The notes under the pieces are model-generated. The model did no database searches and had not been told where the DNA came from. It saw only the letters and a list, made by a program, of their open reading frames with translations. Shown piece after piece: positions 528 through 18,127 of a DNA stretch of 28,107 nucleotides. The position numbers and the translations under genes were made by a program. Within the stretch, counting starts at the first letter, position 1. Each line of letters opens with the position of its first letter. Source of the stretch: an uncultured virus (IMG/VR IMGVR_UViG_3300021197_000882) (Duplodnaviria; Heunggongvirae; Uroviricota; Caudoviricetes); the IMG/VR virus record IMGVR_UViG_3300021197_000882; one strand, written 5' to 3'.

Positions 528-935
528 ATGACATGGCAAGATATACTAAAAGTTAAGAGAACTACTAAGTTGCTAAATGCTAAGAAAGTAAAAGAATATA
601 TTGATAAAAGGATGGCAAAATATCCCGATTCCCCACCTAGTAATCAAAGTATTGCTAGGGTTTTGAATATGTCTCTTGATGATGTAGAAGAAGCAGTTCA
701 AGCAATAGAAGAAGCATATGAGGATTTACCTACCAGATTACAGAAGTATTGTGAAATGCACCGTAATGACCCCGAACCTATTCCTATTCCTATGAAAGAA
801 AAGATGGGTAAGAAGAAACTTGTTGGTGGTCAAAAGAAATTAGATACCGATAACGACGGCGATATTGACGCAAAGGATTTGAAGAGGCTAAGGAAAAAAC
901 CAAAAAAAAGCAAGGGTAGGGGATTTACAAGATGA
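528..935 (+). CDS. WxxILK-tagged protein with EF-hand-like loop and basic C-terminus
   Basis: AGGTGA RBS at 517-522 precedes ATG 528 (MTWQDILK). DTDNDGDIDAKD at 843-878 fits DxDxDGxIDxxD. Ends in a K/R-rich tail. Confidence 0.75.
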   Translation: MTWQDILKVKRTTKLLNAKKVKEYIDKRMAKYPDSPPSNQSIARVLNMSLDDVEEAVQAIEEAYEDLPTRLQKYCEMHRNDPEPIPIPMKEKMGKKKLVGGQKKLDTDNDGDIDAKDLKRLRKKPKKSKGRGFTR

Positions 936-1039
936 CACGGTGTAATAACTTAGATGCTTGGTTTGATGTTCAGTCAAAGAAGGTTGATGAGGTCGAAAAG
1001 AAAACCAAGAAAGATTTTGTGACAGGTGGTAAGAAATGA
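932..1039 (+). CDS. Small hypothetical protein, 35 aa (MTRCNNLDAWFDVQSKKVDEVEKKTKKDFVTGGKK), missing from the ORF track
   Basis: ATGA overlaps with both neighbours and fills the gap exactly. Its C-terminal TGGKK is shared with the next gene. Confidence 0.65.
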   Translation: MTRCNNLDAWFDVQSKKVDEVEKKTKKDFVTGGKK

Positions 1040-1307
1040 GTTGGAAAAATATCTTAAAAGAAGACTTGTCTACCGAAGTCGCTTATGCTTTACTTCCTAT
1101 TTATGATAGTATAGATAAGGTGTATGATTCTGAAATTATTGAACATCATCAAGGTAGCGACGGGGTTCTTAACGAAGGAGATGTTGAATCTTTAATATCG
1201 TATTTACTACAAGATATAGAAAAGGAAAGCGACGAAGCCTACGAAAAGATAATGGAATCCGTAGATGAATTAAGAAAGATAACAGGTGGTAAGAAATGAG
1301 TTGGAAA
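1022..1307 (+). repeat. 26-bp perfect direct repeat ACAGGTGGTAAGAAATGAGTTGGAAA at 1022-1047 and 1282-1307
   Basis: Read directly. Each copy spans stop codon, RBS and the start of the tag. Confidence 0.9.
1036..1299 (+). CDS. WxxILK-tagged acidic hypothetical protein
   Basis: Starts MSWKNILK after AGGTGG RBS; ATGA coupling at both ends. Confidence 0.8.
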   Translation: MSWKNILKEDLSTEVAYALLPIYDSIDKVYDSEIIEHHQGSDGVLNEGDVESLISYLLQDIEKESDEAYEKIMESVDELRKITGGKK

Positions 1308-2072
1308 TATATATTAAAAGAACGAAATCCGTTTATGAATAGATTGGAAGATTCGTTAAAGAAGTTGGCTAGTGCAGTCGGTAGCAGGGGAATTTATGTA
1401 GATACTGCTAAAAATCTAGTAAGTGAATATATTATGAAATTAGAAGGGACTGACCTTTTATCCGTTCCTCAAATAGAAGAATATATGTTAGAGGCTTTAA
1501 CAACGCCAATTAACTACTTTAGTGAAAAATTAAAAGATGAGAGTTTTAGAGAGGAAATACAAGAAATAGCAGATATCGGTGAATTATCCGTTAAGGAAGA
1601 GGAAGATAATCCGGATATGGAGAAATTCAACCTTTCTCCTAAACAAATAGAATTGGTCAAAAAAATAGGAAATCAAATCTTGGCTCAAGTAATAGAAATG
1701 GCTAGTGATAAGTTGTATGCCATGACTGGTAAACTAGAGCAGGAGATAAGGGATAGAAGAGAAGATTTAACCGAAGAAGATGAAGAGGAAATAGAAAGAA
1801 TATCCGTAAATGAAAGAAAGGTCATAAAAACCATACGAGGACTAATACGAGATAAAAGATATAAGATAAATTATACCTTGAATGTGAGTCAAGATATGAT
1901 TAAACTGGAAGTATTAGAAAGGATGCGATTCGCTAGTAGAATGACATCTAAAGATGACGAACTATATCCAATAGAGACAGATGCTTTTGCTCAACACTTC
2001 AATGCCTTTACTACTAAATTCCCAGACTATGATTGGGTTGGTAAAAGTTGGTCTAAATTTTTGAGGGATTGA
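1296..2072 (+). CDS. Hypothetical protein with N-terminal WxxILK tag and C-terminal tag-like KSWSKFLRD
   Basis: Starts MSWKYILK; helical, acidic protein; ends GKSWSKFLRD. Confidence 0.8.
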   Translation: MSWKYILKERNPFMNRLEDSLKKLASAVGSRGIYVDTAKNLVSEYIMKLEGTDLLSVPQIEEYMLEALTTPINYFSEKLKDESFREEIQEIADIGELSVKEEEDNPDMEKFNLSPKQIELVKKIGNQILAQVIEMASDKLYAMTGKLEQEIRDRREDLTEEDEEEIERISVNERKVIKTIRGLIRDKRYKINYTLNVSQDMIKLEVLERMRFASRMTSKDDELYPIETDAFAQHFNAFTTKFPDYDWVGKSWSKFLRD

Positions 2073-2073
2073 C

Positions 2074-2754
2074 TTGTCATGGCAAGATATCCTTAAAGAA
2101 ACCATAGCCCAAAATAGGGTTAAGGAAATTGAGGATATAGATATTGACATAGACGATGATGATTGTCGTAGATGGCTTCAACGACTTCAAGATATTATTG
2201 TAGACTTTGCTAAGAAACACGCAGGAATGGACAAGTTAAAACAGAATGATGTTGGTAAAGGTATAACAGAAGCAGAAGCCTGTGAATTTAAAGAAGCGAT
2301 AGAAAAAACTTTGGTAGTAAATAAAAAGGGAGACTTGCCTATTCCTATAAGTTCTTCTACTACGATTGAGGGAAGAAATAAAACAGGATGGGATATAGTA
2401 AGAATAGAACTATATGTTCTTGAGGAGGAAGGCGACCCTTATATGCATGAATGGACTATAAAACCTAAACTTAGCCTCAGACTTAGATTTATGGAATCTT
2501 GGCCAAGAAGTAATTTTAAGGAATCAAGCGAATCGTTTATTGAAATTCATATTGAAAGGGTAGACTTTGACGATTACGCTGATTCCGATAAAGATTTATT
2601 TAGATTTATTGAGAGGCTATATAGGCATTGTTCTTGGGATTTTACAGGCACTAGAAGATTGATGCAGGACTACATGGAGAGGGTTAGAGAAATACCCGAT
2701 TCATCGAAAGAAGCAAGAAAGAAATTTAATGGTAGGTATAAGGGGTGGGAGTAA
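2074..2754 (+). CDS. Tandem paralog 1 of 5 (tag + TIxQxRVKEIEDIDIDIxDDDC constant region)
   Basis: TTG start, SWQDILKETIAQNRVKEIEDIDIDIDDDDC; unique C-terminal part. Confidence 0.8.
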   Translation: MSWQDILKETIAQNRVKEIEDIDIDIDDDDCRRWLQRLQDIIVDFAKKHAGMDKLKQNDVGKGITEAEACEFKEAIEKTLVVNKKGDLPIPISSSTTIEGRNKTGWDIVRIELYVLEEEGDPYMHEWTIKPKLSLRLRFMESWPRSNFKESSESFIEIHIERVDFDDYADSDKDLFRFIERLYRHCSWDFTGTRRLMQDYMERVREIPDSSKEARKKFNGRYKGWE

Positions 2755-2755
2755 T

Positions 2756-3361
2756 ATGAATTGGAAATATATTCTAAAAAATGTAATTACTCAAGGCCGT
2801 GTGAAAGAGATAGAAGATATTGACATAGATATAGAAGATGATGACTGTCGTAGATGGTATAACAGATTATTAAAAATCGTGGATAGAATTAACCTTCTTC
2901 CGGATGATAGTACGGTTAGATTAGGTGGACGGGGAGTATATTCTTATTTACCGCTAGAAGTAGATGAACAAACTGCTTGTCTAATAAAAGAAGATATGAC
3001 TCATCCACATAGTGCGTCTACCAAAATTATTAATATGAAAAATAGAGCGAAGGAAACTTATGAGAAAACAGGTTTTATGACTGGCTTTAGCGTTAATAGA
3101 GCAAAAAATGTAAGACAGATATTTCATCTTTTTGTTTATAATTTAGTAGATAGATTAGGAGACAAACGAGATAGTGAATATGGAGAAACAGGATTAGATT
3201 TATATTTCGATTGGAGAGGAAATAAAAAAGACGCTAAGTTAATTCTTGTTATTAACGAAGAGGATATAAAAAGAGATAGTAACAATATTAAAGAATTACT
3301 TCGACACATAGAACAGTCTTGGGCTATAGATGTACTAACTAATTATGGGGTTTTCAAATGA
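2756..3361 (+). CDS. Tandem paralog 2 of 5
   Basis: Start reassigned to ATG 2756 (MNWKYILKNVITQGRVKEIEDIDIDIEDDDC), after GGGGTGGGAG. Confidence 0.8.
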   Translation: MNWKYILKNVITQGRVKEIEDIDIDIEDDDCRRWYNRLLKIVDRINLLPDDSTVRLGGRGVYSYLPLEVDEQTACLIKEDMTHPHSASTKIINMKNRAKETYEKTGFMTGFSVNRAKNVRQIFHLFVYNLVDRLGDKRDSEYGETGLDLYFDWRGNKKDAKLILVINEEDIKRDSNNIKELLRHIEQSWAIDVLTNYGVFK

Positions 3362-4023
3362 AGTGGGTAGATATTCTCAAAGAAACCATTACTCAAGGTA
3401 GAGTAAAAGAAATAGAGGATATTGATATAGATATAGAAGATGATGACTGTAATAGAAAATTACAACGAATGTATAACAAGTTAAAAAATTATAATCTTCT
3501 TTTAGAAGAACGGTGGAAGGCAGGTTGGCCGAGATATGCAGAGTATTTTGCAGGTGTGAAGCACAAAACTAATAATGAAACTAACTCTTTTGGAATATAT
3601 ATAGACGAGGAACAGTCTGATATGTATTCTTTTCCAGTTTTTACCGAAAGCACCATATTCATCTATAACCCTGTTCCCGAACCCGTAGCCTGTAAAGCAT
3701 TAGAAATTTTAGAAAGTCATCAAAAAACTCACTCCGATGGTGGAGGAAGTCAAAATATTAAAACATATTATTTTGAACATGACGGAGTAACTTGGGAAAT
3801 ATTAAGAAGTTTTAATTTTGACTATCAAGATAATAACAATAGTCTTGCTATTGGTAAGGAAGGTGAAGACCAAAACAATCCACAAATATGGTTAGAGTGG
3901 GAAAACGGAGAATCTTTCTTTGGTGTCTATGATAAAGACAGAGGCATAATTGATACTAGTGGAATAAATAAATACTCAGGATATTATGATGCTAGAAAGT
4001 TTGGATTTAGTTGGCAGGAGTGA
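3358..4023 (+). CDS. Tandem paralog 3 of 5
   Basis: MKWVDILKETITQGRVKEIEDIDIDIEDDDC; similar along its length to paralog 4. Confidence 0.8.
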   Translation: MKWVDILKETITQGRVKEIEDIDIDIEDDDCNRKLQRMYNKLKNYNLLLEERWKAGWPRYAEYFAGVKHKTNNETNSFGIYIDEEQSDMYSFPVFTESTIFIYNPVPEPVACKALEILESHQKTHSDGGGSQNIKTYYFEHDGVTWEILRSFNFDYQDNNNSLAIGKEGEDQNNPQIWLEWENGESFFGVYDKDRGIIDTSGINKYSGYYDARKFGFSWQE

Positions 4024-4774
4024 TTAATATGAAGTGGCAGAATATCTTAAAGGAAACTATAACTCAAGGAAGGGTAAAGGAAATCGAAGATATAGATATT
4101 GATATAGAAGATGACGATTGTAACAGAAAATTACAACGAATGGCAAATAAATTGAAAAATTATAATCTTCTTTTAAGACAAAGATGGAAAGCAGGTTGGC
4201 CACAGAACCAAAAATATTTTGAAATAGAAAGGGATGAGCAAAGGGCTGACTTTTCGTTTTTTGGACTTAAGGTAAAAGAAGAAAATAAATTTACCTCACT
4301 TAAACAATATATTTTTGAATCGGCTGCTTCTATATATAATCCAATACCTGAAAATGTTGCTTGTAAGGTATTAGAAATTCTTGAAGAAACACCTCAAACA
4401 GATAAGGAGTATGGTTCAGCAATAACTATCGAATTTGAAGGATATATAATTTACAGAGATTTTAATTTTAATTGGCAATATAATGTAAATAGACTTGAGG
4501 TTACATCCCCAAGCGGAAAAAACGAAATTATGTTGTCTTGGACTAATGGTGAAGATACTGGCTTAGTTCGGGGTGTTGGGGGAGAGACGGTAAATTTGGC
4601 TAGAGGCTCAAATAACATATATAGAACATCGGGATATTATGACGCAAGAGAATCTGGATTTAATTGGCACAAGTGATTGATATGAATTGGAAAGATATCT
4701 TAAAAGAAACTATAACTCAAGGTAGGGTAAAAGAAATCGAAGATATAGATATTGATATAGAAGATGATGATTGT
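3979..4774 (+). repeat. About 143-bp imperfect direct repeat (3979-4121 / 4632-4774) spanning gene end, RBS and next gene's constant region
   Basis: Both copies run ggatattatga.gc.aga...ggattta.ttggca..agtgatt.atatgaa.tgg...gaaatcgaagatatagatattgatatagaagatga.gattgt, 653 bp apart. Confidence 0.85.
4029..4676 (+). CDS. Tandem paralog 4 of 5
   Basis: Start reassigned to ATG 4029 (MKWQNILK) after GGAGTGA. Shares CNRKLQRM..KLKNYNLLL..RWKAGWP, YNPxPExVACKxLEILE and SGYYDAR..GFxW with paralog 3. Confidence 0.8.
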   Translation: MKWQNILKETITQGRVKEIEDIDIDIEDDDCNRKLQRMANKLKNYNLLLRQRWKAGWPQNQKYFEIERDEQRADFSFFGLKVKEENKFTSLKQYIFESAASIYNPIPENVACKVLEILEETPQTDKEYGSAITIEFEGYIIYRDFNFNWQYNVNRLEVTSPSGKNEIMLSWTNGEDTGLVRGVGGETVNLARGSNNIYRTSGYYDARESGFNWHK

Positions 4775-5263
4775 TTAAGATGGGTAAATAAACTACATAG
4801 TATTATAGATAGAGAGCCTTCAAATGAAAGTCAAGTAGGTGGTTCGTATAACTACCTTTCCGATGAAGAAAAAGCCTGTGAAATTAAAAGAGCATGGGGA
4901 AATCCCTTTGAAAAGGAGACAGGAAATACGGGTTATAGTGTAAAACAGTTCCCTTTAACATGGCTTCAGTATAGTGAGCAATCGTATTCCCGCCTTTTGT
5001 TGAATAAATATTTTGTTACAACAATAACTAGTCAAGATTTTTCAAAAGGAGCAGAAGTCGAATTTACAGTATCAAACTATGACTTTACTAGAGACGATAA
5101 AGCATTTAGTATAAGTTTATGGGGTTCTCCCGTTGGTGAAGGGCAAGGAATAGCATCTCAATTTGTTACTAAGGATAAAGAGAAAGCGATTAAGATAGTG
5201 AAGGAATTGTGTAATTATCTAAATCTTTCTTACAATGAAATGGCAAAGGGGATTTTATTATGA
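4682..5263 (+). CDS. Tandem paralog 5 of 5
   Basis: Start reassigned to ATG 4682 (MNWKDILKETITQGRVKEIEDIDIDIEDDDC). Confidence 0.8.
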   Translation: MNWKDILKETITQGRVKEIEDIDIDIEDDDCLRWVNKLHSIIDREPSNESQVGGSYNYLSDEEKACEIKRAWGNPFEKETGNTGYSVKQFPLTWLQYSEQSYSRLLLNKYFVTTITSQDFSKGAEVEFTVSNYDFTRDDKAFSISLWGSPVGEGQGIASQFVTKDKEKAIKIVKELCNYLNLSYNEMAKGILL

Positions 5264-5430
5264 GTTGGAAAAATATTCTTAAAGAAAAAACTAATAAGGA
5301 AAGCATAGAGAAAGAAGCGGGAGCAGTCACTACTACTTCTCCTTCAGCAGTTTCGGGAAAACTATTCAATATAACTTATGGGGGGAAAAAGCGTGGTAAA
5401 AAGAAGAAAGATAAAGAAGAAGACGATTGA
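5260..5430 (+). CDS. WxxILK-tagged small protein, 56 aa, missing from the ORF track
   Basis: MSWKNILKEKTNKESIEKEAGAVTTTSPSAVSGKLFNITYGGKKRGKKKKDKEEDD*; ATGA overlap with paralog 5. Confidence 0.75.
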   Translation: MSWKNILKEKTNKESIEKEAGAVTTTSPSAVSGKLFNITYGGKKRGKKKKDKEEDD

Positions 5431-6832
5431 TTACAAAGGTATGGAAATTAATCAAAACCTCGATAAGTATGATTTTGTTAATGAGTATGCTAAGTGGAAG
5501 AAAGCCTGTTTAGGTATTTCCGGTAGTAAGATGCGGGTAAAAAATATTCCAACTCTTTTTGATTTTCTTAAGAATCATCTTACGGGAACTTATGTTAGAG
5601 ACGATAGTAGAAATCGAGCCGCAGGTGCAATAGGACAAGGGGCAGTAGAGGCTATCAAAACAATGGATAGAGTTTTACAAAAGAACTATCTTAGCGATGA
5701 TGATTTAGAAGACATCACTGACTTAGCAAAGGTATTGGAGGAATTATATGAAACAGGAAAAGATGTGGGTAAAGAAGGCATTGCTTTAGACCCTGCTTTT
5801 ATTGTGTTTACTGAAAATAGAAAGGATGCTAGGGGAAAACCAATGAAGGCTAAAACAGTAACGGGTCACTATGCTACGGCTAAATATGCCAAAAAATACA
5901 ATACTACACAAGCCCCTAATGCTTGGTTTAGTGGAACGATGGACGGAGGTAATATTCCCCATCAAGCACTTTACAATAAATCTAATAGTTCTGAGTTTAG
6001 TTCTAGGGGACTTAGATATATTTTAGAAGATGCTATTCAAGCAGTAAAAGAACCTATAGAAGTAGGGGGCGCACCAATAGGGGAAGATGATTTTAAAGAG
6101 TGGGAAAAATTAAACGCCTTTGAAACCTTTTTTACTAAGGCAACAAGGAATACATCTTTTTGGAAAGATGGTAGACTACTAGTAGATAAACTTAGAAGAG
6201 AGTTTGAAAACACAGAATTTAAAATAGGTAACAAAGAAAAGTCTCTTATTGAGAGATTAACTAAACTAAACACTAAGGATTCTCCGGCAGGAACTATTGG
6301 AATGGTTACTTGTACGGCGACTCCTCAAGTTATTGTTAGATTTGTTAAAGAAGCACTACTTCGAAGAGGAACTACTAAAGCACCGGATGGTAAACCTGCT
6401 TGGCAGAATGTTATTAGAAGAAAAGAAGACGGTTTTGATTTTAGAGATGAAGGAATACAAGACCGAGTAGTAAGCGTTAGTCAAAAGAGACAGGCAGTTG
6501 AATTGGCAAAGATACCGGAGATAAAGCGATATGCACAGGCTTTGCTTAGGAATACCTCACTATATAATGATAATGATTTTCAAACTTCCCAATCACTGAG
6601 AATGTTAAGAGAGCGAGATTTTAATTTTTCTCCTTCCTCTAAAAATAAAATAATGGAGATGTTTAATTTATCAGATGTTAGGAAAATAAATTTCAAACTT
6701 ACTAAGAATGCTATGAAGGCTTTGTTAAATCAATCAGTGATTACTCGAACTAGAGATTTACAAAGCATGAATGCTCCTAATACTAAAGAGAGAATAGTAT
6801 TGAAATCATGGATGGATATTTTGAGGTATTAA
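5378..6832 (+). CDS. Hypothetical protein with basic N-terminus and C-terminal tag KSWMDILRY (true start possibly GTG 5393)
   Basis: 484-codon ORF ending IVLKSWMDILRY. GGGGG precedes GTG 5393. Confidence 0.75.
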   Translation: MGGKSVVKRRKIKKKTIDYKGMEINQNLDKYDFVNEYAKWKKACLGISGSKMRVKNIPTLFDFLKNHLTGTYVRDDSRNRAAGAIGQGAVEAIKTMDRVLQKNYLSDDDLEDITDLAKVLEELYETGKDVGKEGIALDPAFIVFTENRKDARGKPMKAKTVTGHYATAKYAKKYNTTQAPNAWFSGTMDGGNIPHQALYNKSNSSEFSSRGLRYILEDAIQAVKEPIEVGGAPIGEDDFKEWEKLNAFETFFTKATRNTSFWKDGRLLVDKLRREFENTEFKIGNKEKSLIERLTKLNTKDSPAGTIGMVTCTATPQVIVRFVKEALLRRGTTKAPDGKPAWQNVIRRKEDGFDFRDEGIQDRVVSVSQKRQAVELAKIPEIKRYAQALLRNTSLYNDNDFQTSQSLRMLRERDFNFSPSSKNKIMEMFNLSDVRKINFKLTKNAMKALLNQSVITRTRDLQSMNAPNTKERIVLKSWMDILRY

Positions 6833-6833
6833 T

Positions 6834-7496
6834 ATGGTAACAAGAAAGCGTTGTGGTATGTGCCAACATGAAGATAGAACAGAACTAGAAAATTTATTGG
6901 AAAGTGGTTCTATTACTTGTGATGAGTTAGATGAAAAATATGGATGGAGAAGCGGTACTGCTGCACAACATCAAAGAAATCACATGGGAGAATTTGAAAT
7001 GAGTTCTAACCCTAAGTGTAAATTATGCGTCGAGCCTAATAGAAAACAGATTGAAATGGCTCTGTCTAATGGAGATATAACTACTAGAGAAGTAGCGGCT
7101 GAATTAGATACTACCCAACAACAAATCCAAAGACATCTTAAACATCACTTAACTCCTATTGTCCAAGAGAGTGCGGCTATGATGATAGCAAAGAAAGATG
7201 TCAATGAAGTTGAACTACTATCAAACAATGTCGCTAAATTAGAAGTGAGAATGTCACAAGTCTTTGATGAATTAGGAAATGATTTAGACCCTAAGATGAT
7301 TGATGCTCTAACTAAACTCGCTAGAGAAGTAAGAGAATCATTAAAATACTTGATGGAGTTTAAGGGTAAATTGATACATAGGCGACAAGATACCGTAATC
7401 GTTCATCAAATGCAAATAGTCCAAGAAGTATTAGCCCAAAATAATCCACAAATATGGTTAGATATTAAACAAAGAATGCAGGAGAAATTACAATGA
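6834..7496 (+). CDS. Probable terminase small subunit / DNA-binding protein with two CxxC-HTH-HxxxH units and helical C-terminus
   Basis: CGMC...HQRNH and CKLC...TREVAAELDTTQQQIQRHLKHH, followed by coiled-coil-like helices; lies upstream of TerL. The function is inferred. Confidence 0.5.
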   Translation: MVTRKRCGMCQHEDRTELENLLESGSITCDELDEKYGWRSGTAAQHQRNHMGEFEMSSNPKCKLCVEPNRKQIEMALSNGDITTREVAAELDTTQQQIQRHLKHHLTPIVQESAAMMIAKKDVNEVELLSNNVAKLEVRMSQVFDELGNDLDPKMIDALTKLAREVRESLKYLMEFKGKLIHRRQDTVIVHQMQIVQEVLAQNNPQIWLDIKQRMQEKLQ

Positions 7497-7759
7497 GTTG
7501 GCAAGATATTGTTAAGTTTGAAGGTTTGACTCCTAGAGATATAGCAACTAAGTTTGCTGATGGTCTATTTGATAACTATGCAAGAAAAATGAAACTAGAA
7601 GAAATAGAGCCTGATGTTCGTTTAAGACTAATAATGAAACAATACAAAAGAAGATGGATTAAAAATTTACAAAAAGATATCGAACGGCTTGATGATGTTA
7701 TCAACGCTATGGCAGAAGGTAAAATACCACTTGAAAAAATGCAGGAGAAGTTACAATGA
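7475..7759 (+). repeat. 22-bp direct repeat AATGCAGGAGAARTTACAATGA at 7475-7496 and 7738-7759 (1 mismatch)
   Basis: Read directly. Each copy holds the GGAG RBS, stop codon and next start. Confidence 0.85.
7493..7759 (+). CDS. Tagged hypothetical protein (MSWQDIVK)
   Basis: ATGA coupling; ends MQEKLQ, identical to the end of the upstream gene. Confidence 0.75.
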   Translation: MSWQDIVKFEGLTPRDIATKFADGLFDNYARKMKLEEIEPDVRLRLIMKQYKRRWIKNLQKDIERLDDVINAMAEGKIPLEKMQEKLQ

Positions 7760-8037
7760 ATTGGAAAAATATATTACTAAAGATGCTACTTCCTAGACAG
7801 TTTATGGAACATTTTGCCTTTAAATTAGGTCTTGATGCTAGCGCAGTTAAAGGTGGTCATGGTAAAGCAGGAATTAAAATGTTTATTGACTTTGAAGATA
7901 AAAGATTGGAACTACTGCAAAAAGGAAGAGGTGGCTTTACTATTTTTATTAGAGAAAACAATATGGTAGTTGAGCGACTTGGCAACTACGATTTAGAAAA
8001 ACTACTAAAACCTGTTGAAGAAGCACTCAGTTTGTAG
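7756..8037 (+). CDS. Tagged hypothetical protein (MNWKNILLK)
   Basis: ATGA coupling, GGAG RBS, variant tag. Confidence 0.75.
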   Translation: MNWKNILLKMLLPRQFMEHFAFKLGLDASAVKGGHGKAGIKMFIDFEDKRLELLQKGRGGFTIFIRENNMVVERLGNYDLEKLLKPVEEALSL

Positions 8038-8048
8038 GGAGTGGCACT

Positions 8049-10088
8049 TTGAACTGGTTAGAAATACTCAAAGAAGATTTTTTACCTATTACTAGGGTAA
8101 AAGTTTTGGCTAGAACACTGGTTAGAGAACAAATCTTTGATGAGTTTTATCAAGATTTTAAAAATTCTAACAAAGACAGTAGAGAGGCTAAACAATTTTC
8201 TAGGTTTTTAGATAATCTTTCCGGAGATAACCCAAATAGAAAAACTTTGTTTGATGAAATAGATAAATTTTCTGAAAAAAGAGGAAAAGACCCTAGAGAA
8301 GCCAAGAAAAGACTTGAAAAATTAATGTCTTTGAGGATATCTCGCCCAACTAAAACAAAAGACCCCTTAATGGATATAATTACTAGGCTTCATGACACTA
8401 CTAAAGAGGTAGAGAGAGCAAAAAGGAAACCGGATGGGGCTAGTGATGAACTGTTAGCGCAACAAAGCCAGTTAAGAAAAGAAACTGAAGAGTTTTTGAC
8501 AAAAACTACACAATTTCCACTAACAGGAAAGGGCGGAAAGTGGAATAGATACCCCGATGCACAGAATATGTGGCAATATATTACTACTAGACAGCAAAAA
8601 CCATACTTCACTATAACTCCATACAAGGGAAATGAAGATATAGTCGATGAATTTGCAGAAATGATAGATTCAGACAATAAAAACGGTAAATTATACAAAA
8701 AAACTGGACAATTTACCGGATTTAATGAATTAATTAAACTAATTAACTCAAATCCGTCTATTTTGGAGTATTACAATGAAAATATTAGAAAACTTACAAT
8801 AAAATTAGTAAAAGATGAGTCTAGTTCTACATTAGACAAAGATGCTCTAAGAATGACAAGAGATAAACTATCAGGAATACAATATACCGTAAAAACCTTC
8901 ACTGAAGCCACTATTGACGAGTACATAGAGACTATAAATGAAGCAGTTTCCGGTAATAAATCTGCTTTTATACCAAATGACCCTCTGATTAAGAATTATG
9001 TTATGATTTCCGGCATGGGTGATTCTTTGCTTATGTCTCCTATAGCAAAAACCATAATAAGTAGCGAATTTGGTAAAGAATGGGTAGATGAACTTAGCCT
9101 AAAGATTAGAAATGAGAATCTTTTTAGCGATTATGCCATAGAAAGAAAGTTAATTGATGAAATATACCAAACTTTACAACAAGGAAAGACTGAATACCAA
9201 GGAATAGACCTATCAGAGTATGATTTTGAGGGAAGTGAAACACGAAAGAAGCGAAAAATCACCGATTTAGTTAAAAATAGGAAGAATCCCAGTAGGCTAA
9301 GTATGGGTTTTAAGCGTCTAAAAGAGCAAAATAGGGCTAATTTACCCGTATATTTAAGGAATAATCCTAGTATTTCGGAGGCAAAAATCATTGAAAATGA
9401 GTTATCTGACCTATATAATGTGGTATATTTTAATGGTAAAGAGGAAAACAACAAACCTACTAATCAAAGGGATAGTAAAGGGCAGATAATAATGGCCAAT
9501 ACCGAGGATGGGGCTACTCATGCTCAAATATATGATAAGGACAACCCAACAGAAGTAATAGAACTGAAAGATATTGATGTTGAATTGACGGATATTGGAG
9601 AACAAAGAACGGAAGGAGGTAGAAAATTCAACAATCCGTCTTTAATTACATTAAGAGAGATAAGTGGGCTAAATAACAGTATGTTTGCTGAATATCTTCT
9701 TGGTATATCCGAAACAAAAGGTCTTATGGAAATAGTTAGGACTTTTGATATCGAAGCAACTATCCCTAATTTAAGCATGAATGAATTTTTAGGTTTTATA
9801 GGCCTTACCGCAGAAGTAGTCGGAGCAGACGGACTACTATCTGCATATGAAGAACTAGATGATAAAGGAGATATAGAGGTAGCCAAGCAAATTGAAAAGG
9901 ACATACCTCAGATACTTAACAATTTAAAAACAGAAATAATTAGTGATTTTCAAAAGCATGTAGAGTTGTTTGCTAAAAACTATACCGGAGGAAAATTTAA
10001 ATTAGGAAGGGGAGGCTCGACTAAAGCAAAAGAGGCTTTAGAGGCTCTATCGGATGAAGGAGTCGGAATACTACGGAGGAATATGTAA
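8049..10088 (+). CDS. Large WxxILK-tagged hypothetical protein (candidate internal virion protein)
   Basis: TTG start after GGGAGTGG, NWLEILK; 679 aa, charged and helical, no recognisable motif. Confidence 0.75.
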   Translation: MNWLEILKEDFLPITRVKVLARTLVREQIFDEFYQDFKNSNKDSREAKQFSRFLDNLSGDNPNRKTLFDEIDKFSEKRGKDPREAKKRLEKLMSLRISRPTKTKDPLMDIITRLHDTTKEVERAKRKPDGASDELLAQQSQLRKETEEFLTKTTQFPLTGKGGKWNRYPDAQNMWQYITTRQQKPYFTITPYKGNEDIVDEFAEMIDSDNKNGKLYKKTGQFTGFNELIKLINSNPSILEYYNENIRKLTIKLVKDESSSTLDKDALRMTRDKLSGIQYTVKTFTEATIDEYIETINEAVSGNKSAFIPNDPLIKNYVMISGMGDSLLMSPIAKTIISSEFGKEWVDELSLKIRNENLFSDYAIERKLIDEIYQTLQQGKTEYQGIDLSEYDFEGSETRKKRKITDLVKNRKNPSRLSMGFKRLKEQNRANLPVYLRNNPSISEAKIIENELSDLYNVVYFNGKEENNKPTNQRDSKGQIIMANTEDGATHAQIYDKDNPTEVIELKDIDVELTDIGEQRTEGGRKFNNPSLITLREISGLNNSMFAEYLLGISETKGLMEIVRTFDIEATIPNLSMNEFLGFIGLTAEVVGADGLLSAYEELDDKGDIEVAKQIEKDIPQILNNLKTEIISDFQKHVELFAKNYTGGKFKLGRGGSTKAKEALEALSDEGVGILRRNM

Positions 10089-12664
10089 TGACAAAAATAG
10101 AGAGTGGTGGCATAGCCGTAGAAGTGGGCGAAGAAGATTTGAAGACCATAGCAGGAATTACTGCTAAAGGAAAGAGAAGAAGAAAGGAAACTGAAATCAT
10201 AGAACAATGGAGTAAACAGTATCTTGAGCAAAACAAGGTAGATAGAACAGACAAAAATTATCTAAAAGATAGAAAGTTGTTTAAAGAGGCTCTAGGAAAC
10301 ACCTTAGAAGACCTAGAATCAAGTGAAGAAGTTATTGATGTCGCAAGTATAGAAGAACAAGTAAATAACTATTCAAGGCAACTAATGTTAGAAGGCAGAA
10401 GGGGCAGACCTATTGAGGCAAGAGATATAGTAAGTAGGAGATTGCCCGAAGATTTCAATATTACTGCTAGTAAAGAAGTTCAAGACCGAGTAAAAATAGG
10501 AATAGAAAAAAGACTGGGCATGGGTGCCTTTGGCTCTAATAAAATAGCGCAGGATAATCTTTTATTTATTTTAGAACGAATAGAAGAAGTTGAGGCCGAA
10601 CCAAAACAGAGAGAACTAAAATATCCTTTAGGTGAACTTATGGGAGCAGTCGATGTTTCTAAAGGAGAGACTAGAAAGAAAGTCTACAAGTTTTGGGCTA
10701 ATGTAGTAAAAGAAAAGGAAGGAGTTTTTTTACAATCCTTGGAAGATTTATCTCAACTACTAAAACAATTAGATAATGAAGAGGCTAATAAATTTATTTC
10801 TAGATATGATTTGGATGGTGGAGATTATACACAGTTTGTTTATATTGCTGACTTTCCCTTTGCTGATGTTCTAGTAGCAGATGCCGGAGCAAGGTTTATT
10901 CTTCTGTTGATTAGAATTATGCAAGCACAAGGATTGTATGATAAAATATCAGAAATGAAAGATACTCCCGAAGAAAGACAAAGAGAAGAAAATATTTCCG
11001 GAGGAAAACAAGAGGCTATGGAACAGGCGTTTCTAAATGCCGTTGGTTCGGATAGTCAATATACAGGGGCTACTATATCAGAAGATGATTTGAATTCTGC
11101 TTCGGAGGAATTTGAAGAATTGCCAGCCTTTATGGAAAAAGCAAAATCTATTCCTGCTAAAGCAGACCCTTTGTTAGTATGGGAAAACAGTAGAAATGTA
11201 AAACTGGTAGCGATAATAAAAAAGCACTATGATATTCTAAAGACATACTTAGAAGGGGCGTTGGCTCAAGATGATTTAACTTTCAGTGTTAGAGGAAATG
11301 TTAGTAGATTACTAGACGAATTGGAAGATACTCTAGCAATAGAAGGAATAGAAGAAAACCCCGAAGGGGAGAATTCTACTTTCCCATTTGCTTTACCTCT
11401 TTCTGTTCTAGCGGATAAATCATTTTATGTTGTCTATGGCAGAATGGAAAAAGGATTTTATCCGTTATCTACTCGAGATGGAGGACAGAGGGTAAATTTA
11501 GACTATGATAAAACAATAGACTATGATAATATGAATTTTATTAAAGAGTTTTTCAATGACCTTGCTTCTTTAGTTTTAGTTTCCGATAAGAAATCATTCC
11601 CTCAAGGTGCTAGAGAAGCAGTAGGGGTAAGAGCCACTAGGGGACAAGATAAGACCATTACTGATTTTAAGGACACTCAAAGAGGTTCAGCGATACAATC
11701 TTATGCTAAAGACACGGCGTATAAACCAACACCTCCAAAACTAGAAAGCACTTTTAAAGAAGGAGAGGCAAAAGAAGTAGTTAAAAAATTCTTCAAGGCA
11801 GCAGAAGAATACTACTACGAGCCAATGAATAAAGGAATGCTTCCAGTTTCAGTTCCTTCTTTCTATAATGCAGTCGGTGGTAAAGTAGTAAAGGAAATAA
11901 ATAAACTGTTAGGTAATTCAACGGGAATCACTAGCCCATTCTTTAGAAGCACTAGAAGATTCGAAAAAATTACACCTAACGATTTTAGAAATATAATAGA
12001 TTATTTAAAAGACTATCAAGACATTGACACCAATGTTACTAATGATTTAATTACCGCAGGTAAGAGAGCAGCAAAATCTCTTAAAAAGTTCGGAGTAGAA
12101 TCAAGCGATGCTCTAGGTTTTATTTCTTTATTGTTATTTAATATCATGGACGAAACTCAAGACTTTAGTAAAAAGAATAGAAAAATAAAAGGTAAGACTA
12201 TAGAAGAAAGAGCAAATGAAACTAGAACGGGTTCTTCTTCATTTAAGTTGGATTTCATAAATACTCTAGAAGAAAAACAAAGTCTGTTTGCCGGAGGAAG
12301 CAGGGAAGAAAGTAAAAGAAGAGAGGCTTATTTCGAACTAATGGAATTGCTAAGAAATAGTGTAAAAGAAGACTCCCCCGTTACTATTGGTAAAATGATT
12401 AATAAAAAACTACTTAATGCTCATGATGTTATTAGAAAGGCATTAGGAAAAGAAACTGTATATGGTTTCTTGCCTTTGACTTTTGATAGTGTAGACCTAA
12501 TGATAGAGAAGATGCACAAAGAAGAAAATTTAGATTTAAGTCACATGGAAGTAGAAAGTATTGTTAAGTCAATTGATTCTCATGATTCCATAGGTAGAGA
12601 CTATGGCATAACTGCTGACCATGTATATTTAATTAAGGCTAGATTTAGACAAAGGGTTTGGTAA
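10088..12664 (+). CDS. Large hypothetical protein (858 aa)
   Basis: Long ORF, TAATG overlap with the upstream gene, GGAGGA RBS; no motif recognised. Confidence 0.75.
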   Translation: MTKIESGGIAVEVGEEDLKTIAGITAKGKRRRKETEIIEQWSKQYLEQNKVDRTDKNYLKDRKLFKEALGNTLEDLESSEEVIDVASIEEQVNNYSRQLMLEGRRGRPIEARDIVSRRLPEDFNITASKEVQDRVKIGIEKRLGMGAFGSNKIAQDNLLFILERIEEVEAEPKQRELKYPLGELMGAVDVSKGETRKKVYKFWANVVKEKEGVFLQSLEDLSQLLKQLDNEEANKFISRYDLDGGDYTQFVYIADFPFADVLVADAGARFILLLIRIMQAQGLYDKISEMKDTPEERQREENISGGKQEAMEQAFLNAVGSDSQYTGATISEDDLNSASEEFEELPAFMEKAKSIPAKADPLLVWENSRNVKLVAIIKKHYDILKTYLEGALAQDDLTFSVRGNVSRLLDELEDTLAIEGIEENPEGENSTFPFALPLSVLADKSFYVVYGRMEKGFYPLSTRDGGQRVNLDYDKTIDYDNMNFIKEFFNDLASLVLVSDKKSFPQGAREAVGVRATRGQDKTITDFKDTQRGSAIQSYAKDTAYKPTPPKLESTFKEGEAKEVVKKFFKAAEEYYYEPMNKGMLPVSVPSFYNAVGGKVVKEINKLLGNSTGITSPFFRSTRRFEKITPNDFRNIIDYLKDYQDIDTNVTNDLITAGKRAAKSLKKFGVESSDALGFISLLLFNIMDETQDFSKKNRKIKGKTIEERANETRTGSSSFKLDFINTLEEKQSLFAGGSREESKRREAYFELMELLRNSVKEDSPVTIGKMINKKLLNAHDVIRKALGKETVYGFLPLTFDSVDLMIEKMHKEENLDLSHMEVESIVKSIDSHDSIGRDYGITADHVYLIKARFRQRVW

Positions 12665-12666
12665 TT

Positions 12667-13191
12667 ATGGCTGTAACTATTTCAAATCAATTGTATTCCG
12701 AAGAGGACATGCTTAGGATTTGGAATGGCTACTGGACTAATAATAATAAAGCGTATCTAAAGTTACCTAGAAGGCAGAGGGCAACTATTAAAACTACCTT
12801 GTCTGCTGTCAATCCAATGTATTTTATTTCTTATGATGGAGAAGTCCCTGTTGCGTATAGTGGTATTGAGGATAACGGTTTATTTTATGCAAGTGCCGGA
12901 ACTTATGTTATTCCTGAATATGAAAATCAAGGGGTTGCTGGAGAATTAGTGAATAAAAAAATGAAAAAGTTTGGTTCAAAACCTGCAATTACTTTCATTA
13001 ATAATCTAGAGCCTTATTGGAAAGGGTTTTTTTTAAGAAGAGGGTGGCAAGTAGTTGATATGAACGATTTACCTAAGACTATTCCTAGAGACATAGTTCA
13101 AAAAGAAATAGATGCTTATGGTGAAGATAATGTTTTAATCTATAATAATGTAGTTACTAAGGCTTGGCATTCAATTTTAAAGAGATGGTAG
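12667..13191 (+). CDS. GNAT-family N-acetyltransferase with C-terminal tag KAWHSILKRW
   Basis: YVIPEYENQGVAGELV matches acetyl-CoA-binding motif A (V.P.Y[RQ].xG.[AG]); also PVAYSGI strand and N....GFFLRRGW motif B. ATG 12667 preferred over TTG 12658. Confidence 0.7.
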   Translation: MAVTISNQLYSEEDMLRIWNGYWTNNNKAYLKLPRRQRATIKTTLSAVNPMYFISYDGEVPVAYSGIEDNGLFYASAGTYVIPEYENQGVAGELVNKKMKKFGSKPAITFINNLEPYWKGFFLRRGWQVVDMNDLPKTIPRDIVQKEIDAYGEDNVLIYNNVVTKAWHSILKRW

Positions 13192-15985: not shown

Positions 15986-16128
15986 ATGCAGAAGAGTGGG
16001 TAATTAGTAAACAGAAACTACAGTTCAAGTATTGTGGTAGATGCTTTACTGTTAAAGATGTTCATCCATTCGGATTTTGTAAAAAGTGTTGGGAGCAAGC
16101 CGGTAAGCCCAAGGGGATGAAAGCATGA
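15982..16128 (+). CDS. Small CxxC-x11-CxxC zinc-finger protein, 48 aa, missing from the ORF track
   Basis: GTG start after GGAGGA: MNAEEWVISKQKLQFKYCGRCFTVKDVHPFGFCKKCWEQAGKPKGMKA*; GTGA/ATGA overlaps at both ends. Confidence 0.75.
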   Translation: MNAEEWVISKQKLQFKYCGRCFTVKDVHPFGFCKKCWEQAGKPKGMKA

Positions 16129-16502
16129 GTTGGCAGGACATATTGAAAAAGAAAAAGAAGCGTAAAACAAGTCCTTGCTGTTATAGAAAGGTAAGTGTTA
16201 GATATAAAGGTGGAAATTCTGCATACAGAAGTGGTGCTTTTGTAGCGTGTGATAAAGTAGGTTGTGAAAATTGGGGTAAATCTGTAAAAAAGGCTAATCC
16301 TTTGAAAACATGGTTTGAACAATCGGCTAGAGGCGAAAAAGGAAAACCGAAAGTAAAGGGTTGGGTTTCTTGCCAATCATGTGAAGATGATAAAGCAGGA
16401 GCAAAACCTTGTGGAAGAAAAGATGCTTCTAAAGGAACTAAACAAAGATGTAGACCTACTTGTGCGGCTTGTAAAACCTATAAGAGAAGAAAGGGGAAAT
16501 AA
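16125..16502 (+). CDS. WxxILK-tagged basic Cys-rich protein
   Basis: MSWQDILKKKKK. The segments CYRKVSVRY..SAYRSGAFVACDKVGCENWG and LKTWF..GWV..KPCGR..RCRP recall small basic domains of marine phages (from memory). Confidence 0.75.
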   Translation: MSWQDILKKKKKRKTSPCCYRKVSVRYKGGNSAYRSGAFVACDKVGCENWGKSVKKANPLKTWFEQSARGEKGKPKVKGWVSCQSCEDDKAGAKPCGRKDASKGTKQRCRPTCAACKTYKRRKGK

Positions 16503-16503
16503 A

Positions 16504-16716
16504 ATGTCTTGGACTAGCATTCTCAAAAGACCTAGACAAATGGGTGTCAGATTCAAAGTGGATGGTAAAAACTATCAATTAATGGACGAACAGTTGCAGG
16601 AACTTAAAAGAGAAATGAAAGACCCTTATTTACAAGGAAATAATAAAGATAGAATTAAAAGAATAGCCCTGAGAAGAGTAATTAGAAAGTTCGGCCTACA
16701 ACCCAAATCATTTTAG
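16504..16716 (+). CDS. WxxILK-tagged small basic protein (70 aa)
   Basis: Start reassigned from 16381 to ATG 16504 (MSWTSILK), after AGGGGA and just after the previous stop. Confidence 0.75.
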   Translation: MSWTSILKRPRQMGVRFKVDGKNYQLMDEQLQELKREMKDPYLQGNNKDRIKRIALRRVIRKFGLQPKSF

Positions 16717-17554: not shown

Positions 17555-18127
17555 ATGAGTTGGATGGATATTCTAAAAAGAAAGTGGCAGGGCAAACTGT
17601 CTGCTAATCGTAAGGAATCCTTAGATAGAACTCCATCTATTAAAATAAAAATACCTAATATGAGTTATCCCGACGAAGAAAAAGAGATTTCCAAAGTTCT
17701 AAAAATTATGAAAGATAAAAAACTTAAACCAAAAGAAATGGACGATGCTGACCTAAAACCGGATATAGAAATGTTTGATATTGTTGGGGAAGATGGTGAT
17801 GACTATGAAGATTTTATATTAGATATAAATCATTATGCTATTACTGAAAAAATGAAATACAATAGACCCAGACCATTTCAAGTAAGTGAAGAAATACCTA
17901 CAACAAAGACAACCACCGATGATACTCCTGCTTTTCCTAGTGGTCATGCTATGCTAGGCTATGGATTAGAAAGAATACTTAGTAGTAAATTTCCAAATAA
18001 GAAGAAACAGTTAAAAGAAATGGCTGATAGAATAGCACTATCTAGGATTCAAATGGGTAGTCATTATCCAAGCGACATAGAAGCCGGAAAGAAAATAGGA
18101 TATATGTTAGGTGATGCTTATGAGTGA
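17555..18127 (+). CDS. PAP2/acid phosphatase-vanadium haloperoxidase superfamily phosphatase, WxxILK-tagged
   Basis: All three family motifs present: KMKYNRPRP (KxxxxxxRP), PAFPSGH, SRIQMGSHYPSD (SRxxxxxHxxxD). AGGTGA RBS. Confidence 0.9.
   Translation: MSWMDILKRKWQGKLSANRKESLDRTPSIKIKIPNMSYPDEEKEISKVLKIMKDKKLKPKEMDDADLKPDIEMFDIVGEDGDDYEDFILDINHYAITEKMKYNRPRPFQVSEEIPTTKTTTDDTPAFPSGHAMLGYGLERILSSKFPNKKKQLKEMADRIALSRIQMGSHYPSDIEAGKKIGYMLGDAYE

Follow-up and report, generated by a model that had tools for sequence, protein, structure and literature searches.

Three open reading frames (ORFs) of an uncultured virus end in a short peptide that also opens many of its other proteins. As judged from sequence, the three C-terminal segments are protein-level copies of an address peptide of magroviruses; two of them are canonical and one is degenerate. 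The copies at C-termini and at the junctions between protein modules are the most informative ones. The whole stretch of DNA that was analysed, 28,107 nt long, is called the window here, and every feature with coordinates lies on its plus strand. No description of the address peptide was found in the literature searched.

The tag at protein N-termini

The tag is found at the N-terminus of 17 proteins in the window that are otherwise unrelated, and it is shared among them in the way that a propeptide is shared among proteins with a T4-type capsid targeting sequence (CTS). The N-terminal tags are MTWQDILK (528..551), MSWKNILK (1036..1059), MSWKYILK (1296..1319, the start of ORF 1296-2072), SWQDILK behind a TTG start (2074..2097, 1 nt past the stop of the C-terminal tag at 2043-2072), MNWKYILK (2756..2779), MKWVDILK (3358..3381), MKWQNILK (4029..4052), MNWKDILK (4682..4705), a second MSWKNILK (5260..5283, on an ORF of 56 aa overlapping the beginning of ORF 5378-6832), MSWQDIVK (7493..7516), MNWKNILL(K) (7756..7779), NWLEILK behind a TTG start (8049..8072, on a 679-aa ORF), MSWQDILK (16125..16148, on a small basic Cys-rich protein), MSWTSILK (16504..16527), MTWISILK (16727..16750), MSWMDILK (17555..17578, on a PAP2 phosphatase-like protein) and MSDWQDILK (18120..18146). 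In the window and 26 related loci taken together, 253 of the 588 plus-strand genes carry the N-terminal tag.

The consensus of the N-terminal tags is [S/T/N]-W-[K/Q/E]-[D/N]-I-L-K. It contains three hydrophobic residues and an acidic residue at position +2 from the Trp, and its net charge is about zero. The tagged proteins are all soluble in the sense that they have no hydrophobic stretch, and none of them has a 19-residue segment above 1.43 on the Kyte-Doolittle scale. A Sec or Tat signal peptide was rejected because it needs an N-terminal hydrophobic core of about 7-15 residues, whereas the tag has three such residues and is also placed C-terminally.

C-terminal copies in the window

A sequence-only reading of the window had reported three ORFs with tag-like C-terminal ends, and translation confirms all of them, each closed by a stop codon: KSWSKFLRD (2043..2072) ends ORF 1296-2072, KSWMDILRY (6803..6832) ends ORF 5378-6832, and KAWHSILKRW (13159..13191) ends the GNAT-like ORF 12658-13191. 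The SWMDIL of the second is, as that reading had noticed, identical to residues 2-7 of the PAP2 gene product (17555-17578, MSWMDILK). When all six frames of the window are searched with the expression W..[IF]L[KR], 18 matches are obtained on the plus strand and none on the minus strand; 15 of the 18 are N-terminal, three lie 7-8 residues before a stop, and none is interior. The C-terminal ends do not occur at the rate of shuffled sequences: with this expression, which was fitted to the examples of the sequence-only reading itself, three C-terminal matches stand against a mean of 0.006 per window in 5000 residue shuffles of 34 ORFs, and only 0.6% of the shuffles yield at least one.

A scoring matrix was derived from 184 N-terminal tags only, which were collected by regular expression from the window and its relatives with a crude ORF caller; it is independent only for C-terminal and interior copies. 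On this matrix SWMDILR scores 16.9 bits, AWHSILK 13.7 bits and SWSKFLR 1.8 bits, and so the matrix marks two of the C-terminal tags as canonical and that at 2043 as a weak look-alike. ORF 1296-2072 had been described as tagged at both ends. This description is correct for its N-terminal MSWKYILK, but its C-terminal copy only resembles the tag (1.8 bits).

Each of the three C-terminal tags is followed by its stop, one base and then the next start. The closing codons of each tag spell GGAG or GAGG 5-12 nt before that start; TTG AGG GAT at the end of the tag at 2043-2072, for example, is the source of the GAGGGA ahead of the TTG start at 2074. Because the ribosome-binding site of the next gene is encoded there, the last residues of the C-terminal tags ([K/R/W]-R) are also constrained, and part of the motif thereby has a nucleotide-level reason.

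Conservation of the C-terminal copies in orthologs

The sequence-only reading had tied its C-terminal motif to conservation in orthologs, and such conservation is found across three sets of sequences (13/13, 12/12 and 10/10). ORF 1296-2072 (258 aa) has the motif at both ends. Its N-terminal MSWKYILKERNPFMN is invariant except for a change of Tyr5 to Asn in one of 13 homologs, and KSW[SP]xxLRD is kept at the other end in 12/12 full-length homologs, down to 44% identity. In the AF2 model of this protein, residues 1-9 and 212-258 have pLDDT values below 50, and the tag at residues 3-8 is helical.

In the homologs of ORF 5378-6832 (484 aa), K476, W478 and L482 are invariant in 13/13 sequences, down to 40% identity. 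The C-terminal peptide of most of these homologs is WQxxLWR, with Trp replacing Lys. Short homologs (371-404 aa) have lost the last domain and keep the ending ...SK[ML]WQxxLWR. The AF2 model places a helix of residues 477-483 on a tether, residues 457-484 having pLDDT below 50; a Foldseek search of the 484-aa model against the PDB returned nothing at E <= 0.001. Both tags of ORF 1296-2072 and the C-terminal tag of ORF 5378-6832 are thus modelled by AF2 as short helices in low-confidence ends that are not packed against the protein body.

The GNAT-like ORF (12658..13191, 177 aa) lies directly upstream of the large terminase gene. It has weak matches to Pfam Acetyltransf_1 and Acetyltransf_7 (E 0.002-0.003), and GNAT Pfam families are precomputed for three of its homologs. 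K168, W170 and L174 are invariant in 10/10 homologs; in this set the tag is C-terminal in seven and interior in three, to which a small basic module is fused. Even in copies that are only 23-25% identical, the tag is still present at about residue 165.

Among the N-terminal tags, Leu at +4 uses all six of its codons, Ile three and Lys both, and the C-terminal tags show the same synonymous variation. Such free variation indicates that selection acts on the protein. On this comparison of codons and orthologs, the C-terminal copies are selected and are no accidents.

Tags at module junctions

When the matrix is run over the window and the 26 related loci, with genes not de-duplicated, 14 C-terminal and 37 interior tags are found, where shuffles give 0.05 and 2.65, respectively. 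In a census of 97 protein families with at least four unique members each, 66 families are never tagged, 15 are always tagged at the N-terminus and 16 are mixed. The C-terminal state is seen in two census families only, at a score cut-off that misses the WQxxLWR and KSWSxxLRD variants. In the GNAT-like family of this census, the tag is C-terminal in seven members and interior in six, and a second module lies downstream of the interior tags. The module behind one GNAT-like protein (P0035) aligns with the free-standing tagged ORF 16125 from the tag onward (E 0.009). Some junctions in relatives carry tandem tags, and proteins with two or three interior tags are also present there. Movement of the tag from one terminus to the other, for which the sequence-only reading had proposed to look, was not seen among orthologs; families are either N-terminal or C-terminal/junctional.

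Because the peptide is kept at N-termini, at C-termini and at module junctions, it cannot be a translation-start or Sec-type secretion signal. The junction tags further imply that a free end is not strictly required, and the C-terminal and junction copies together indicate a self-contained unit that is active at any place in the chain. The sequence-only reading had called the tag a binding peptide rather than a translation or secretion signal. The second half of that statement stands, and binding is what we infer for the first.

The virus and its head genes

The virus of the window is a magrovirus (Magrovirales, viruses of Poseidoniales archaea). Genes for terminase, portal, S78 protease, capsid protein, ligase and endonuclease are grouped together in the window, and a relative of 92.8 kb (G002) encodes a thermosome-type group II chaperonin, RFC, a split PolB, ERCC4 and a second ligase. 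This gene content matches the description of magroviruses in the available text of PMC5434244, in which a genome of about 100 kb combines a caudoviral head module with an archaeal-type replication module, the structural module includes one ATP-dependent ligase and a homing endonuclease, and a chaperonin is also encoded. The tags of the window flank the terminase and portal genes. In four complete relatives, 29/78, 24/72, 14/73 and 22/77 genes of the head strand are tagged, and the corresponding numbers for the replication strand are 0/53, 0/64, 0/61 and 0/69 (247 genes in total).

The prohead serine protease of the window (25432..26700; Pfam Peptidase_S78, E 4.6e-9) is joined to a scaffold-like region. 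This protease-scaffold contains conserved hydrophobic-Leu-Lys sites: DFSILK (25483-25500), constant among the variants listed; FDILKQ at the junction of protease and scaffold (25945-25962), found in 80/80 loci; and KETILKA in the scaffold part (26590-26610), again constant among the variants listed. The adjacent gene encodes an HK97-like major capsid protein of the SU10 type (26702..28099; Pfam SU10_MCP, phrog_24667), which has a conserved LLK in SNQLLKQ (26765-26785).

The protease-scaffold ends in the tail MDWSDIHKMVGGY (26659..26700, up to the stop), presumably a capsid-binding tail, and the same tail, as MDWSEIHKMVDNIG, closes a 76-aa protein (22600..22644). The pattern M[DE]W[SN][DE]IHKM is thus common to the C-termini of two head proteins. 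Among the tails listed from 80 related loci, the W, I, H, K and M never differ; these protease loci all reach 69% identity or more, and the protease tail is almost constant among them. Four features are common to tail and tag: the Trp, and after it an acidic residue (+2), an Ile (+3) and a Lys (+5). On the matrix of N-terminal tags, DWSDIHK of the tail obtains 2.5 bits, a rank of about 30th among 1255 Trp-centred heptamers, and the likeness of the tag to the scaffold tail is modest. A distant capsid relative (P0041) leads to five loci of another virus group; no canonical tag was seen in the ORFs of four of these loci, and one near-miss is MFWLREVKK in locus L139. The protein upstream of the capsid gene in these loci has, about 15-20 residues ahead of its C-terminus, W-x-x-V-H or F-x-x-V-H.

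A docking and loading model

The tag may be a docking helix that is active at either end of a protein and loads cargo into the procapsid, in the manner of the T4 CTS and the cargo peptides of encapsulins; we give this model an even chance of being right. The peptide would be an amphipathic helix, short and N-capped, of the form [Met or Lys]-[Ser/Thr/Ala]-Trp-x-x-hydrophobic-Leu-[Lys/Arg], on the flexible end of an accessory protein or, in fused relatives, between two modules, and docking would be indifferent to its place along the chain. The most likely partner would be the inside of the assembling head, either the capsid protein or the scaffold core, where the tag would imitate the conserved tail (Met-Asp-Trp-Ser-Asp-Ile-His-Lys-Met) of the protease-scaffold and the small scaffold-like protein. 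About 20 fast-changing soluble proteins, among them the GNAT-like enzyme, the PAP2-like phosphatase and small basic proteins, would be co-assembled into the procapsid in this way, and the S78 head protease might then cut at the flanking Lys residues.

A bolder form of the model, which is possible although we lean against it, treats the tag as a position-independent zip code plus cut site. About 20 fast-evolving effectors would then be loaded into the head and delivered together with the DNA, and the multi-module ones would be cut by a Lys-directed head protease. If so, a helix in front of, behind or between modules would suffice for entry into the head, and multi-module proteins would be loaded whole and separated into effectors inside the capsid.

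Several observations weigh on the other side of the docking and loading model. With one gene in five to six tagged, the capsid load would be large. The C-terminal tag at 2043 has a poor matrix score, and most ORF 5378 homologs have the WQxxLWR ending. The modest likeness to the scaffold tail, the ribosome-binding sites encoded in the C-terminal tags and the junction tags without a free end also count here.

The flanking lysine and possible cleavage

A Lys was said always to lie between tag and cargo. This rule holds for all C-terminal tags of the window, with Lys at W-2 in 3/3, and for nearly all of its N-terminal tags, with Lys at W+5 in 16/17 and at +6 in the exception, MNWKNILLK; however, it is not universal in relatives. 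There about 33 of 37 distinct C-terminal DNA contexts have a Lys within the three residues that precede the Trp, 7 of 16 distinct interior tags (18 rows, three of the ORF 5378 family being merged into one) have one at -2 or -1, and the upstream Lys is absent from the 'DDPxPxW' family. Cleavage after the Lys is a plausible prediction. The conserved Lys at -2 could be a P1 residue, and it could equally well take the place of Met1 with its amino group, found at the same position in the N-terminal tags.

Processing might also be the main function of the tag. The head protease or another Lys-specific protease would then recognise W-x-x-I-L-K and cut at the flanking Lys; the multi-module proteins would be polyproteins, terminal tags would be trimmed, and docking would be secondary. 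The S78 protease of HK97 cuts the HK97 capsid protein after a Lys. In favour of processing, Lys is present at W+5 in 170 of the 184 distinct N-terminal tags, and Lys at W-2 is invariant in 13/13 and 10/10 orthologs and present in the 12/12 full-length sequences of the third set. Proteins with two or three interior tags, as found in relatives, would also suit such processing, as would the conserved hydrophobic-Leu-Lys that marks the two edges of the protease domain and recurs in the scaffold part and close to the N-terminus of the capsid protein; however, this tripeptide is expected about once in 400 residues by chance, as estimated from composition. Moreover, cleavage behind the last Arg or Lys of a C-terminal tag would take off only 1-3 residues, the hydrophobic-Leu is missing before Lys -2 in two of the three families, and several C-terminal or junction tags have no upstream Lys. 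Processing as the main function is unlikely.

Partners outside the head and other explanations

The helix could also bind a partner outside the head, namely the cell membrane, a hub protein of the host, the virus chaperonin or, with the tag as a degron, an unfoldase that depends on a free end. MinD and FtsA bind membranes by terminal amphipathic helices with a broad hydrophobic face and net positive charge, and the predicted helix of the tag is likewise short and amphipathic, with Trp, Ile and Leu sharing a face. In the literature searched, the sole matches to its hexapeptides are titles on frog dermaseptins. Dermaseptins begin ALWKDILK and are membrane-active. However, the tag has just three hydrophobic residues, is acidic at +2 and lacks a net positive charge. 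A group II chaperonin is encoded by the relative G002, but its gene lies in the replication arm, whereas tags are confined to genes of the head arm (0/247 in the replication arm of four genomes). Degrons are typically terminal, and the junction tags have no free end. A partner of this kind is rather improbable.

Alternatively, the C-terminal tags could be functionless leftovers of N-terminal tags whose downstream modules have been lost, kept in part by the ribosome-binding site of the next gene. The same position is indeed a junction with a downstream module in relatives, the closing codons of each C-terminal tag carry the GGAG or GAGG described above, and the tag at 2043 is degenerate (1.8 bits). 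However, 12-25 nt separate Lys -2, Trp and Leu +4 from the next start downstream. Three families keep these residues unchanged, or almost unchanged, down to 40-44% identity, and the codons for them show synonymous variation. The tag persists in the copies of 23-25% identity, and the short ORF 5378 homologs that lack one domain still have the peptide. Leftovers would also be expected out of frame or in spacers, and the six-frame scan of the window contains none. We consider this explanation improbable as well. A signal in DNA or RNA, such as a cassette recombination joint, a translation enhancer or a frameshift site into the next gene, is highly improbable: tags do lie at module borders, and the stop-one base-start spacing behind all three C-terminal tags means that a +1 shift would fuse the ORFs, but the same spacing is found at 2754/2756 and 16502/16504 where there is no C-terminal tag, free synonymous variation leaves little nucleotide identity for recombination or RNA pairing, and on this codon variation a signal for DNA recombination or in RNA was rejected.

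Implications

Among the viruses of ocean archaea, magroviruses belong to the most abundant ones, and a function is known for a minority of their genes; to our knowledge, no magrovirus has been cultured. If the docking and loading model is true, the address peptide would give about a fifth of magrovirus genes one role, that of head cargo, and this cargo would probably consist of tools for host takeover or for countering defence. An eight-residue tag placed on either end of a reporter would be a simple design, and possibly a capsid-loading tool later on.

Comparison with known cargo systems

The tail of the HK97 protease reportedly carries the protease and foreign proteins into the prohead (work of Duda and colleagues, Duda et al. 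2013). Similarly, the S78 protease-scaffold of the window and its 76-aa protein have a common conserved C-terminal tail. The difference is that a tail-like peptide would have spread here to about twenty unrelated genes, mostly to their N-termini.

We know of no sequence likeness between the magrovirus tag and the T4 CTS (IPI-III, Alt; gp21 protease). The CTS is likewise a short terminal peptide and the sole conserved part of a varied and quickly changing accessory set encoded among head genes; the end residue of the tag could be a cut site of the head protease, and the cargo, putative in magroviruses, includes enzymes and basic proteins in both. According to the available text of PMC3012670 and PMC7411985, the CTS is the only conserved part of diverse packaged defence proteins and is taken off by the prohead protease. 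The host of magroviruses is, in contrast, an archaeon, and the tag is carried by about one gene in five to six as compared with four in T4. Its additional placement at C-termini and junctions is unreported for T4 in the available text of the same sources (PMC3012670; PMC7411985). The T4 cargo is packaged and cleaved, whereas for the magrovirus proteins packaging and cleavage are predictions.

Encapsulin targeting peptides are similar: they are short, lie on flexible tethers and attach cargo to the inside of an HK97-fold shell, as the tag would do in the model. We know of no peptide pocket in the magrovirus shell protein, and this shell is, unlike that of encapsulins, a virus capsid that also takes in DNA. 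The Family 1 consensus SDGSLGIGSLKRS differs from the magrovirus SWxDILK. As described in the available text of PMC8346489, the targeting peptides of Family 1 are placed at the C-terminus, ferredoxin cargo has an N-terminal form, and one candidate motif is found both between domains and at the C-terminus.

In phage P1, the first 30 residues of DarB send this large antirestriction protein, and a reporter, into the capsid, and no consensus is reported for the Dar proteins' N-termini in the available text of PMC9024508. In contrast, the magrovirus consensus is strict and is common to many proteins.

The C-terminal tags and their frequency relative to chance

The Trp-centred tag occurs at C-termini as well as at N-termini. 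Three ORFs on the + strand of the window end in KSWSKFLRD (ORF 1296-2072), KSWMDILRY (ORF 5378-6832) and KAWHSILKRW (GNAT-like ORF 12658-13191), and these translations are exactly those written in the sequence-only reading. M-x-W-x-x-I-L-K or a close variant opens 17 ORFs of the window. The regular expression W..[IF]L[KR] has 18 matches on the + strand, of which 15 are N-terminal and three are placed 7-8 residues ahead of the stop; the window has no match on the - strand and none in an ORF interior. The comparison with shuffled sequences that the earlier reading had proposed gives 0.006 expected C-terminal matches per window (residue shuffles, 34 ORFs) against the three seen.

Because this expression was modelled on the examples of that reading, a position matrix was built from N-terminal tags only (184 distinct tags from the window and 26 related loci). 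Counted from Trp as position 0, its consensus is S/T/N at -1, K/Q/E at +1, D/N at +2, Ile at +3 (158/184), L/I/V at +4 and Lys at +5 (170/184). The C-terminal tags SWMDILR (16.9 bits) and AWHSILK (13.7 bits) are canonical, and SWSKFLR (1.8 bits) is a weak look-alike. Applied to the window and the 26 loci without de-duplication of genes, the matrix yields 14 C-terminal tags versus 0.05 in shuffles and 37 interior tags versus 2.65, many of the interior ones being N-terminal tags with unusual starts. Two interior look-alikes lie in the window, PAWQNVIRRK (6395-6424) and KFWANVVKE (10688-10714). A-W-Q of the former is invariant in 13/13 homologs, and short homologs stop about 40 residues beyond it.

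Conservation of the C-terminal tags

The C-terminal motif is conserved in the orthologs of all three proteins (13/13, 12/12 and 10/10), and the objection that it might not be, which the earlier reading had itself raised, fails. K476, W478 and L482 of ORF 5378-6832 are invariant in 13 homologs with identity down to 40%, the common ending being ...IVLK-x-(M)W-x-x-x-L...; shorter homologs (371-404 aa) are missing the last domain and nevertheless retain the ending ...SK[ML]WQxxLWR. ORF 1296-2072 ends in DWV[GST]KSW[SP]xxLRD in 12/12 full-length homologs with identity down to 44%, and its N-terminus, MSWKYILKERNPFMN, is invariant in all 13 homologs except for a change of Tyr5 to Asn in one. K168, W170 and L174 of the GNAT-like ORF are invariant in 10/10 sequences. 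The gene preceding the terminase is a divergent GNAT-like copy in every relative examined (23-25% identity where BLAST aligns), with the tag near residue 165. The untagged 858-aa ORF 10088-12664 has a C-terminal motif of its own, VY(L/A)IKAxFR (window 12620-12664), which is kept in all relatives at an overall identity of 25-30%.

Among 185 distinct N-terminal tag DNA sequences, all six Leu codons are used at +4, all three Ile codons at +3 and both Lys codons; C-terminal tags likewise vary synonymously at Lys -2, Ser -1 and Leu +4. This free synonymous variation indicates selection on the peptide. Codon 2 begins with A in 141/185 distinct N-terminal tags of the window and relatives, consistent with an influence of ATGA start/stop overlaps on the residue preceding Trp; this partly accounts for the S/T/N/K preference at -1. 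Ser at this codon is spelled AGT far more often than TCN. In nearly all of the 37 distinct contexts listed, the codons for the final residues of the C-terminal tags ([K/R/W] then Arg) spell GGAG or GAGG 5-12 nt upstream of the following start codon, which explains the preference of these tags for Arg or Trp-Arg where N-terminal tags have Lys.

Position of the tag within genomes and protein families

Every long ORF of the window lies on the + strand, including those for the large terminase (13193-14617), a homing-endonuclease-like protein (14627-15985), the portal (18535-20169), an ATP-dependent DNA ligase (22903-25392), an S78 prohead protease fused to a scaffold-like region (25432-26700) and the HK97-type major capsid protein (26702-28099). 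Complete genomes of relatives are 92-97 kb long, and one of them (G002) encodes a thermosome-type chaperonin, RFC, a split PolB, ERCC4 and a second ligase. These genes, together with the ligase and homing endonuclease within the head module, agree with the magrovirus description in passages of PMC5434244. Tags are confined to the head-gene strand in four complete genomes, where 29/78, 24/72, 14/73 and 22/77 genes are tagged; the corresponding counts on the opposite strand are 0/53, 0/64, 0/61 and 0/69.

The tag is also found at domain junctions. The GNAT-like 'C-terminal' tag precedes an extra domain in the related loci L009/L010 (about 400 aa), L018 (460 aa) and L030 (279 aa) and in the homologs P0033-P0035; the added part of P0035 aligns with the free-standing tagged ORF 16125-16502, the alignment beginning at the tag itself (E 0.009). 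In the 'DDPxPxWFNLLK' family, the tag is the end of the protein in L015 and L028, and the protein extends past it in L020, L021 and L023, with a tandem pair of tags in L020 and L021. The window has the unfused form of this layout: KSWSKFLRD, a stop, one base and then (TTG)SWQDILKE. No start codon is found at -2 of interior tags. Among 2075 unique complete proteins, a census identified 97 families of four or more members: 66 without any tag, 15 with an N-terminal tag in every member and 16 mixed. Only two families show the C-terminal state, and the movement of the tag between termini that the earlier reading had proposed to look for in orthologs was not seen, as none of the 97 is N-terminal in some members and C-terminal in others. 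An additional N-terminal tag is present on P0029 (GNAT-like) and P0013 (ORF 5378 family).

The first 53 nt of ORF 5378-6832 are shared, in a different frame and across a GGGGGGAAAAA run (window 5260-5450), with the 56-aa tagged ORF 5260-5430. The ATG at 5378 has no preceding ribosome-binding site; other relatives have a normal AGGAGG-ATG start, and the two counterparts are fused in frame in P0013 and L029. Slippage or frameshifting could yield an ORF 5378-6832 protein with a tag at both ends. The gene upstream of this family always ends in (A/G)AVTTTS-x-P-x-MF followed by a Lys-rich run (window 5320-5370; L005-L030), independently of its N-terminal body (56 aa in the window, 285 aa in the genome G004). 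Five tandem paralogs (window 2074-5263) have ITQGRVKEIEDIDIDI(E/D)DDDC directly after the tag and diverge completely beyond it.

Lysine next to the tag

Lys was claimed always to precede the C-terminal tag. All three families of the window do conserve Lys -2 strongly; it is missing from several C-terminal and junction tags in relatives. In N-terminal tags, position -2 is Met1 with its free amino group. Lys -2 may therefore serve as the P1 residue of a cut or, alternatively, stand in for a positive, unbranched side chain that belongs to the recognised element. Hydrophobic-Leu-Lys is conserved at four places in head proteins, namely as DF.ILK close to the N-terminus of the protease, as FDILKQ where protease and scaffold join (80/80 loci), as ETILKAQ within the scaffold part and as NQLLK around residue 27 of the capsid protein. 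These sites are consistent with, and do not prove, a putative Lys-directed cut by the S78 protease.

A scaffold tail and the proposed role of the tag

The protease-scaffold protein ends in (A/E)EMDW(S/N)(D/E)IHKM(V/A)GG and a 76-92-aa protein in M(D/E)WS(D/E)IHKMV in the window and four genomes, and none of the tails listed from 80 related loci differs at W, I, H, K or M. A C-terminal peptide common to two head proteins usually signals a tail that binds the capsid or core. Tag and tail have in common Trp, an acidic residue at +2, Ile +3 and Lys +5, a modest likeness on the tag matrix (2.5 bits, about rank 30 of 1255). In another virus group (L136, L138, L140, L139), whose capsid protein finds that of the window at 45% identity, the gene upstream of that for the capsid protein encodes a product with W-x-x-V-H or F-x-x-V-H some 15-20 residues from its C-terminal end in the first three loci and with W-R-E-V-E in L139. 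No canonical tag was seen on the other ORFs of these four loci, and the motif of the scaffold tail may therefore predate the tags.

In the AF2 models of the 258-aa protein (mean pLDDT 63.9) and the 484-aa protein (mean pLDDT 73.1), the tags form short helices within ends of low confidence (residues 1-9 and 212-258 of the former, 457-484 of the latter) and do not pack against the protein body. Membrane-spanning stretches are absent from all tagged proteins. The PAP2-family phosphatase homolog of the window (17555-18127) lacks hydrophobic segments, which suggests that it is soluble; PAP2 enzymes are usually found in membranes. The presence of C-terminal tags is confirmed, and the earlier proposal that the tag is a binding peptide is well supported. 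Head loading is the best candidate for its mechanism.

Comparison with known systems

A full-text literature search with six tag hexapeptides returned only papers on frog dermaseptin and other unrelated subjects. In the main text of the magrovirus papers PMC5434244, PMC11706807 and PMC10160649, a term search found neither 'N-terminal' nor 'N-terminus', and 'motif' occurs in only one, as a helix-turn-helix motif. The capsid targeting sequence of T4, as described in parts of PMC3012670 and PMC7411985, is a short propeptide that is the sole conserved part of diverse packaged defence proteins and is cut off by the prohead protease. According to passages of PMC9024508, DarB of P1 has its capsid signal at the N-terminus, without consensus. 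Encapsulins are HK97-fold shells whose targeting peptides are C-terminal, with an N-terminal form on ferredoxin cargo and one candidate motif found both between domains and at the C-terminus (sections of PMC8346489). The T4 sequence is the closest working model for the tag. The tag differs from all these peptides in sequence, host domain and share of genes involved, and also in its conserved use of both ends and of junctions.
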